DNA of 64,000 nt from Escherichia coli. GTDB lineage: Bacteria; Pseudomonadota; Gammaproteobacteria; Enterobacterales; Enterobacteriaceae. Positions 47,963 through 48,026 of this stretch are shown here, one piece after another; positions within the stretch are counted from its first letter, which is position 1; each line of letters starts with the position of its first letter. The position numbers and the translations under genes were made by a program. The stretch lies in NCBI RefSeq assembly GCF_048403405.1, contig NZ_CP183129.1; one strand, given 5' to 3'. The notes beneath the pieces are model-generated. The model had not been told where the DNA came from. It was given only the letters and a program-made list of their open reading frames with translations, and did no database searches.

Positions 47963-48026
47963 GACGCTTACTCATCAGTAATCTGGTGTACTTTAATTAA
48001 ACCAGTGTAGTTGATGTGTAAGCGTT
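47963..48026. repeat. imperfect inverted repeat element downstream of island gene 1
   Basis: GACGCTTACTCATCAG ... CTGATGTGTAAGCGT; same element recurs at 52333-52396. Confidence 0.6.

Follow-up and report, generated by a model that had tools for sequence, protein, structure and literature searches.

A stable stem-loop without a U-tract behind two related type III effector genes in the phoU–yieH island of Escherichia coli

Introduction

Why does the same long imperfect palindrome stand behind each of two related effector genes in one island of the Escherichia coli chromosome, and does it work there as RNA, as DNA or not at all? The window analysed here, a stretch of 64,000 nt, is E. coli chromosome and contains the phoU–yieH island, which is named S-loop252 in the annotation of O157 Sakai. 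A preliminary description of the window had placed a duplicated element immediately 3′ of two 'large pentapeptide genes', and had proposed for it either the role of a stabilising or Rho-associated 3′ stem-loop or that of a small repeat marking cassette ends, possibly a member of a dispersed repeat family. We here examine the structure of the element, the origin of its two copies, its distribution and its conservation, and weigh the functions that it may have.

Results

The island and its genes

The gene order reads pstSCAB-phoU, espY5-like (+), hairpin A, espX3 (−), espY4 (+), hairpin B, yieH (−) and adeP (Table 1), and both gene pairs that enclose a hairpin, espY5-like with espX3 and espY4 with yieH, are convergent. 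In K-12 the interval between phoU and yieH holds bglGFBH-yieL-yieK-cbrC-cbrB in place of the effector island, and the O157 Sakai counterpart consists of espY4 together with the pseudogenes espX3′ and espY5′. The products of the two espY-type genes are paralogues with 33% amino-acid identity. RefSeq names EspY4 a T3SS effector and its paralogue, which corresponds to the EspY5′ pseudogene of Sakai, a hypothetical or type III effector protein. In place of the earlier label of large pentapeptide genes we use EspY4 and EspY5-like effectors. The Pfam pentapeptide matches of both proteins are below threshold; the clearest pentapeptide protein at the locus is the espX3 product, encoded on the opposite strand between the two espY genes. 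The EspY family has been described as WEX5F/SopD-like effectors that also bear pentapeptide repeats (PMC6313403).

Table 1. Positions of genes, hairpins, homology blocks and motifs in the window (A and B, the two duplicated units)
Feature	Position	Strand	Identity, A vs B	Remarks
espY5-like type III effector gene	45407–47905	+		RefSeq start; longest ORF from 45386; carries WEX5F motif
Hairpin copy A	47963–48025	.		63 nt; 5′ arm, inner stem, 13-nt loop, 3′ arm
Copy A, 5′ arm	47963–47978			GACGCTTACTCATCAG
Copy A, inner stem	47983–47987 with 48001–48005			CTGGT with ACCAG; 13-nt A/T-rich loop
Copy A, 3′ arm	48011–48025			TTGATGTGTAAGCGT
Decayed yieH remnant	48026–48151	−		Directly after hairpin A; sequence match to yieH
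49-codon ORF	48050–48199	−		Built partly from yieH remnant
espX3, pentapeptide-repeat effector-like	48375–49562	−		Converges on hairpin A from the right
espY4 (T3SS effector EspY4)	49868–52276	+		ECs4653 in Sakai; longest ORF from 49823
Hairpin copy B	52333–52396	.		64 nt; 14-nt loop, additional middle helix
Copy B, 5′ arm	52333–52348			Same 16-nt sequence as 5′ arm of copy A
Copy B, middle helix	52350–52352 with 52378–52380			Three extra pairs between outer and inner stems
Copy B, inner stem	52353–52357 with 52372–52376			A/T-rich 14-nt loop
Copy B, 3′ arm	52382–52396			CTGATGTGTAAGCGT
yieH (6-phosphogluconate phosphatase), core gene	52413–53078	−		Converges with espY4
Upstream block	A 45235–45300; B 49694–49759	+; +	74%	Left part of each unit
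espY N-terminal gene part	A 45542–46503; B 49991–50928		60%	
Hairpin, 16-nt spacer, yieH 3′ end	A 47958–48076; B 52328–52447		73%	
Inside yieH	A 48088–48151; B 52700–52763		83%	
19-nt motif AATGAGCGATTTTTTACAG	45271–45289; 49730–49748; 49622–49640	+; +; −		
Small G+C hairpin CCAGGGTAAAAGCCCT(A)	45240–45255; 49697–49714	− (first)		Inside both espY upstream blocks
REP-type palindromes	43371–43447; 44992–45053			After pstA and phoU; sub-threshold naRNA4 matches

The state of the island differs among strains. The espY5-like gene and espX3 are intact in the present strain, which belongs to ST69, are pseudogenes in Sakai (ECs4657 and ECs4654/55, respectively), are frameshifted in another lineage (L011) and have been deleted or replaced by IS1 in two further loci (L065 and L012). 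In Escherichia sp. F1 (L067/L068, 1–9210) the same three-gene island lies between yieK and yieH, so that only cbrB and cbrC have been replaced, whereas in the window it reaches from phoU to yieH, and bgl, yieL and yieK are missing; comparison of the two layouts suggests that DNA next to phoU was deleted afterwards. EspY4 and the 3′ spacer of its gene (49868–52332) are unusually polymorphic within Escherichia, with 85–95% amino-acid identity among the matches, and over the last 84 nt at the espY4 end 54% of genomes fall below 95% identity, in contrast to the adjoining hairpin and yieH. Diversifying selection, or else old allelic lineages, could lie behind this polymorphism.

On their 5′ side the three effector genes also share sequence. 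A 19-nt motif lies upstream of espY5-like, espY4 and espX3, always in the gene's own orientation, and allowing at most two mismatches it has three matches in the window against 0.01 expected; it may represent a promoter or a regulator site common to the three genes. The longer block of 66 nt in which it lies is confined to the island, at two places per genome. The small G+C hairpin inside the espY upstream blocks is followed, in copy A, by a T-run on the − strand, which gives it a terminator-like look.

Architecture and predicted fold of the hairpin

Both copies lie where they had first been placed, with the correction that copy A, being 63 nt long, ends at 48025 and not at 48026. T48026, next to copy A, is nevertheless able to form a G·U pair with G47963. 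In both copies the outer stem consists of 15 pairs with a single T·T mismatch, the 15-nt 3′ arm of either copy being (T/C)TGATGTGTAAGCGT, and it is followed by an inner stem, which agrees with the imperfect long stem described before. Altogether some 23 pairs form three stacked helices closed by a loop of 13–14 nt, with G+C-rich pairs limited to the basal four. The arm pattern, with up to three mismatches, occurs four times in the 64-kb window, exactly at the four arms; shuffled windows gave a mean of 0.34 matches, and none of 100 reached four.

Folding of the + strand RNA gave minimum free energies of −26.4 kcal/mol for copy A and −30.6 kcal/mol for copy B (z = −6.3 and −7.4, respectively), and none of 200 shuffled sequences folded equally well. 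The corresponding values for the − strand are −21.0 and −31.1 kcal/mol, and the hairpin is still the dominant fold when about 150 nt of context are included. The spacer between the espY stop codon and the hairpin is 57 nt in A and 56 nt in B, and on the other side there are 16 nt between hairpin B, at its 3′ arm, and the yieH stop codon. The first eight bases past the stem on the + strand, TGATGTTG in A and TGAAGTAA in B, contain no U-tract, as had been noted earlier. A stable predicted stem-loop that lacks a U-tract on the sense strand thus follows both of the related type III effector genes.

Some smaller structures within and around the hairpin were considered and rejected. An inner hairpin with a U-run (CATCAG..CTGGTG followed by a T-run) was flagged by a consensus scan at 47973–47988 in copy A, and visual inspection gives the same pairing, with a run of six T, in copy B; it is not conserved in other strains, which have GTTCTGT or ATTCTTT as loop at this site. 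Short ORFs after a conserved GGAG downstream of the hairpin are likewise not conserved, their ATG having become ATT in some strains. A hammerhead ribozyme, prompted by CUGAUGA in an arm, was dropped because no Rfam model matched. More generally, searches with Rfam 15 under permissive cut-offs, covering 20 kb as well as the two hairpins with 100 nt on either side, yielded no relevant family; the best matches were to eukaryotic microRNA-precursor models, at 18–25 bits against thresholds of 43–88.

Two copies by segmental duplication

The homology blocks of units A and B are collinear (Table 1). Behind hairpin A the homology goes on for about 125 bp into a decayed remnant of yieH, of which the part 48026–48076 matches the 16-nt spacer and the 3′ end of yieH, and the part 48088–48151 matches yieH codons 106–128 with 83% nucleotide and 74% amino-acid identity, the two pieces being separated by an internal deletion of about 240 bp. 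In a tblastn search YieH residues 106–128 matched the remnant with 74% identity (E = 3e-9), and the C-terminal residues 205–220 gave a weak match. Since homology continues past the hairpin, the hairpin is interior to a segmental duplication and not at its edge, which is at odds with the earlier idea of a small repeat marking cassette ends. The presence of the decayed yieH fragment behind copy A implies that the ancestral unit comprised the 5′ block, an espY gene, the hairpin and yieH, and the hairpin is present twice because this unit as a whole underwent duplication or was acquired a second time. The two hairpins are therefore the outcome of one old segmental duplication, with no independent insertions and no self-movement.

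Distribution across genomes

A genome survey with a query of 88 nt, made up of hairpin B and the spacer, found the hairpin at 2198 places in 1108 of the 5426 complete E. coli genomes, with a maximum of two per genome. The upstream 5′ block was likewise found at no more than two places per genome, and the set of ~1,100 genomes that carry it is essentially that of the hairpin (1107 vs 1108 genomes). No hairpin copy was present on the E. coli plasmids within the complete genomes or in the phage genome collection, and the sole match in PLSDB was a 4.9-Mb chromosome misfiled as a plasmid. Scanning of 100,044 GTDB species-representative genomes with a 20-base arm pattern returned seven matches, five of which, from SAR324, Pelosinus and Bacteroidaceae, are palindromes with no relation to the hairpin. 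The other two are typical A and B copies, in the E. coli-type espY5 and espY4 hairpin regions of E. coli-like contigs (L006 and L007) in a 'Collinsella sp.' metagenome-assembled genome (Map_57_008); these contigs almost certainly belong to Escherichia and were misassigned during binning, and no true copy was found in other genera among the GTDB species representatives. A metagenome scan yielded 51 loci, and those hairpin flanks that were extracted from them are the flanks of the phoU–yieH effector island. The element also stands beside espY4 in genomes that bear the labels E. albertii and Escherichia sp. F1.

The notion of a dispersed repeat family, or of a miniature transposon, did not survive this survey: there are at most two copies per genome, and all 2198 places in the 1108 genomes lie in one island. 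An ERIC-like repeat as the espY4 3′ spacer was rejected too, as the spacer occurs at one place per genome. REP and BIME elements, which stabilise upstream mRNA, are present in hundreds of copies per genome. Like them, the hairpin is an imperfect palindrome in a 3′ untranslated or intergenic region, and they too are often placed between converging genes; unlike them, it has two copies per genome, and it has no sequence relation to them. The REP-based Rfam model naRNA4 matches the real REPs in the window (Table 1) and not the hairpins.

Constraint on the stem

Between copies A and B the arms are identical at 30 of 31 positions and the inner stem at 10 of 10, whereas the remaining interior is about 60% identical and the upstream spacers of 56–57 nt cannot be aligned. 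Other homologous blocks between the units have 60–83% identity. The chance of such arm identity (scored as 31/32) falls from about 0.02 at a background identity of 0.83 to 1e-6 at 0.60, and at 73–83% background the chance of the arm similarity is about 5e-4 to 0.02. Of the 1108 complete genomes with the hairpin, 1087 have it, together with 16 nt, at an identity of 95% or more, but the adjoining 84 nt (CDS end and spacer) reach this level in only 511 of 1107. Between O157 and the present strain the flank differs at about 10 of 60 positions, the hairpin interior at 3 of 33 and the arms at 1 of 31, and differences among variants lie mainly in the loop. Because the metagenome search pattern itself fixed 23 of the 31 arm positions, the polymorphism counts from that scan are biased and were not used for the arms. 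With arms that are kept while the loops and the upstream spacer vary freely, the stem is under constraint.

Strand preference

Over 20 distinct variants, 96.9% of the pair cells are standard on the + strand vs 90.2% on the − strand. Six pairs vary solely between G-C and G·U on the + strand, the same changes giving an A·C mismatch on the − strand; in the tally of pairs six favour + and two favour −, with p about 0.15. All 9 A variants fold more stably on the + strand, as do 6 of the 11 B variants. No double compensatory change on the + strand was found among the pairs of the 20 variants, so that covariation support consists of the wobble asymmetry only. The cues for the − strand are a tail with a slightly higher U content (CUUUUCG in copy A, and CUUUUUGUAU in 9 of the ~34 A-type copies from other strains and metagenome contigs) and the hairpin's closeness to the yieH stop codon. 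In the RNA downstream of both hairpins C exceeds G on the − strand, which is rut-like, and G exceeds C on the + strand for about 150 nt. Taken together, these patterns would give a weak lean to the sense strand of the espY genes as the acting one.

Discussion

The reading that we favour, at somewhat better than even probability, is that the element is a U-less RNA hairpin that protects the 3′ ends of transcripts, or helps to define them, where two genes converge. Transcripts running beyond the stop codon would fold into the ~23-bp helix, and the helix would block 3′-to-5′ exonucleases, thereby fixing and stabilising the mRNA 3′ end, with termination itself being Rho-dependent or diffuse and located further downstream. 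The helix may in addition reduce the transcription that runs on into the facing gene, and at a convergent junction one helix could serve both transcripts and curb antisense read-through. A role at the RNA level and the exonuclease barrier are what we infer as most likely, with a weak lean only as to the strand. The precedent is the stem-loops that Dar and Sorek (2018) described at the 3′ ends of Rho-dependent E. coli transcripts, which lack U-tracts and protect against PNPase and RNase II (PMC6061677). Like those, the present hairpin is stable (−26 to −31 kcal/mol), lies soon after a stop codon, has no U-rich sequence following it and lies between genes, where untranslated read-through would be open to Rho; it differs from them in its unusually long stem (~23 bp in 63–64 nt) and in having rut-like, C-rich sequence downstream on the − strand only. 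The stabilising or Rho-associated 3′ stem-loop of the preliminary description is thus retained as the best functional guess. Since it is the arm sequence that is kept strictly, and not just its pairing, a sequence-specific binding site would appear to fit equally well.

Among the alternatives, an intrinsic and possibly bidirectional terminator, acting mainly for the − strand genes (yieH at hairpin B, espX3 at hairpin A), has the best claim, although we consider it unlikely. Both hairpins lie between converging genes, as bidirectional terminators do, and the near-symmetrical hairpin could fold in both transcripts; hairpin B begins only 16 nt past the yieH stop, the base of the stem is G+C-rich (ACGC/GCGU), and the − strand tail, with the U-rich forms given above, would suit such a role. 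Usual intrinsic terminators have a G+C-rich stem of 5–14 bp, a loop of 3–8 nt and about five or more U within 8–9 nt. The helix of the present element, without a U-tract, is not a canonical terminator of this kind: its stem of 23 bp and loop of 13–14 nt are far beyond the usual range, the A-tract and U-tract flanks of bidirectional terminators are missing, and tails score poorly on both strands. No canonical U-tract was found in the + strand tails UGAUGUUG and UGAAGUAA or in the − strand tails CUUUUCGC and CUAUUCCC, the tail on the yieH side, CUAUUCCCU, being poor as well. A discriminant of the d'Aubenton-Carafa type gave −48 to −52 in all four combinations of copy and strand, a consensus scan placed no terminator at the outer stem, and the stem polymorphisms disrupt pairing on the − strand.

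Another possibility, to which we give a rather low probability, is that the palindrome has no function, was carried along in the duplicated unit, and looks conserved because a slowly changing segment on the yieH side is being compared with the variable espY4 and its spacer. The amino-acid variation of 5–15% in EspY4 within Escherichia does mean that this flank is hypervariable and not typical, the hairpin adjoins core DNA, and paired double substitutions are not seen. However, variation in the loop and the interior of the hairpin is close to that of the flanks, and the arms do not share it. In addition, no functional core gene adjoins copy A, its yieH remnant having decayed to 66–83% identity and suffered a deletion, and despite the decay around them its arms still match those of copy B at all positions but one. 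This persistence of the arms argues against a palindrome without function.

The hairpin might instead be a regulated processing site, either an RNase III target through which read-through would destabilise the effector mRNA upstream of it or the 3′ end of an sRNA, which is in our view improbable. With its coaxial helix of ~23 bp, interrupted by small internal loops, the hairpin is about as large as RNase III substrates are, and in this it resembles the sib/tI retroregulator of phage lambda, also a long 3′ hairpin of that size; the only Rfam similarities, far below threshold, are to generic long-hairpin (microRNA-precursor) models, and the espY/espX island genes are conditionally expressed in O157 (PMC5931665; PMC4048457), espY5′ and espX3′ having increased under sulfamethoxazole-trimethoprim (PMC5931665). 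The resemblance to sib/tI is purely structural, with no sequence similarity; RNase III cleavage and antitermination-dependent read-through are features of the lambda system. The promoter signal does not exceed chance and there is no Hfq-type U tail; the papers that we consulted report no sRNA at the locus, and the one candidate checked, the EHEC sRNA Esr41, maps to OI-43. A further proposal, less probable still, is a sequence-specific cis-regulatory RNA element common to the EspY4 and EspY5 mRNAs, which would couple their stability to read-through or to convergent transcription coming from yieH or espX3, and at which RNase III or some other RNA-binding protein might dock or process the transcript. 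If true, it would explain why the arm sequence, beyond its pairing, is constant in both paralogues.

A DNA-level element, be it the remnant of a miniature transposon, an attC-like site or a recombination or protein-binding site marking effector cassettes, is very improbable: the long, terminal-looking inverted arms with a mismatched base, the position of hairpin B 16 nt from the right edge of the island (K-12 homology ends at the yieH stop) and the common 5′ motif of the three effector genes would suit it, but the at most two copies per genome are both explained by one duplication that continues beyond the hairpin, copies are lacking from true plasmids, phages and other genera in the collections and GTDB representatives searched, no integrase or transposase lies nearby (the neighbours being pst, phoU, yieH and adeP), and the breakpoints of the deletion variant L065 and the IS1 replacement L012 are unrelated to the hairpin. 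The hairpin as a breakpoint of island deletions was likewise rejected, the breakpoints lying elsewhere. With integron attC sites, which span 57–141 bp, the hairpin does share an imperfect inverted repeat, unpaired bases and a location at the 3′ end of a gene; in contrast to attC, its arms lack the core sites RYYYAAC and GTTRRRY, its ends AAAGACGC...GCGTTGATG and ATAGACGC...GCGTTGAAG fitting them on neither strand, there is no integrase, and the two copies are tied together by a duplication that extends beyond them.

For the history of the locus, the yieH fragment beside copy A is a marker of how the island was assembled, namely by block duplication or re-acquisition at the yieH junction and not by cassette insertion, and a non-coding stem has here outlasted the gene remnant next to it. 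A repeat found behind each of two paralogues should thus be tested first as a piece of a larger segmental duplication. If the hairpin does protect or define transcript 3′ ends, as we favour, it would give a concrete 3′ boundary for the poorly studied transcripts of the espY4, espY5 and espX3 effector genes.
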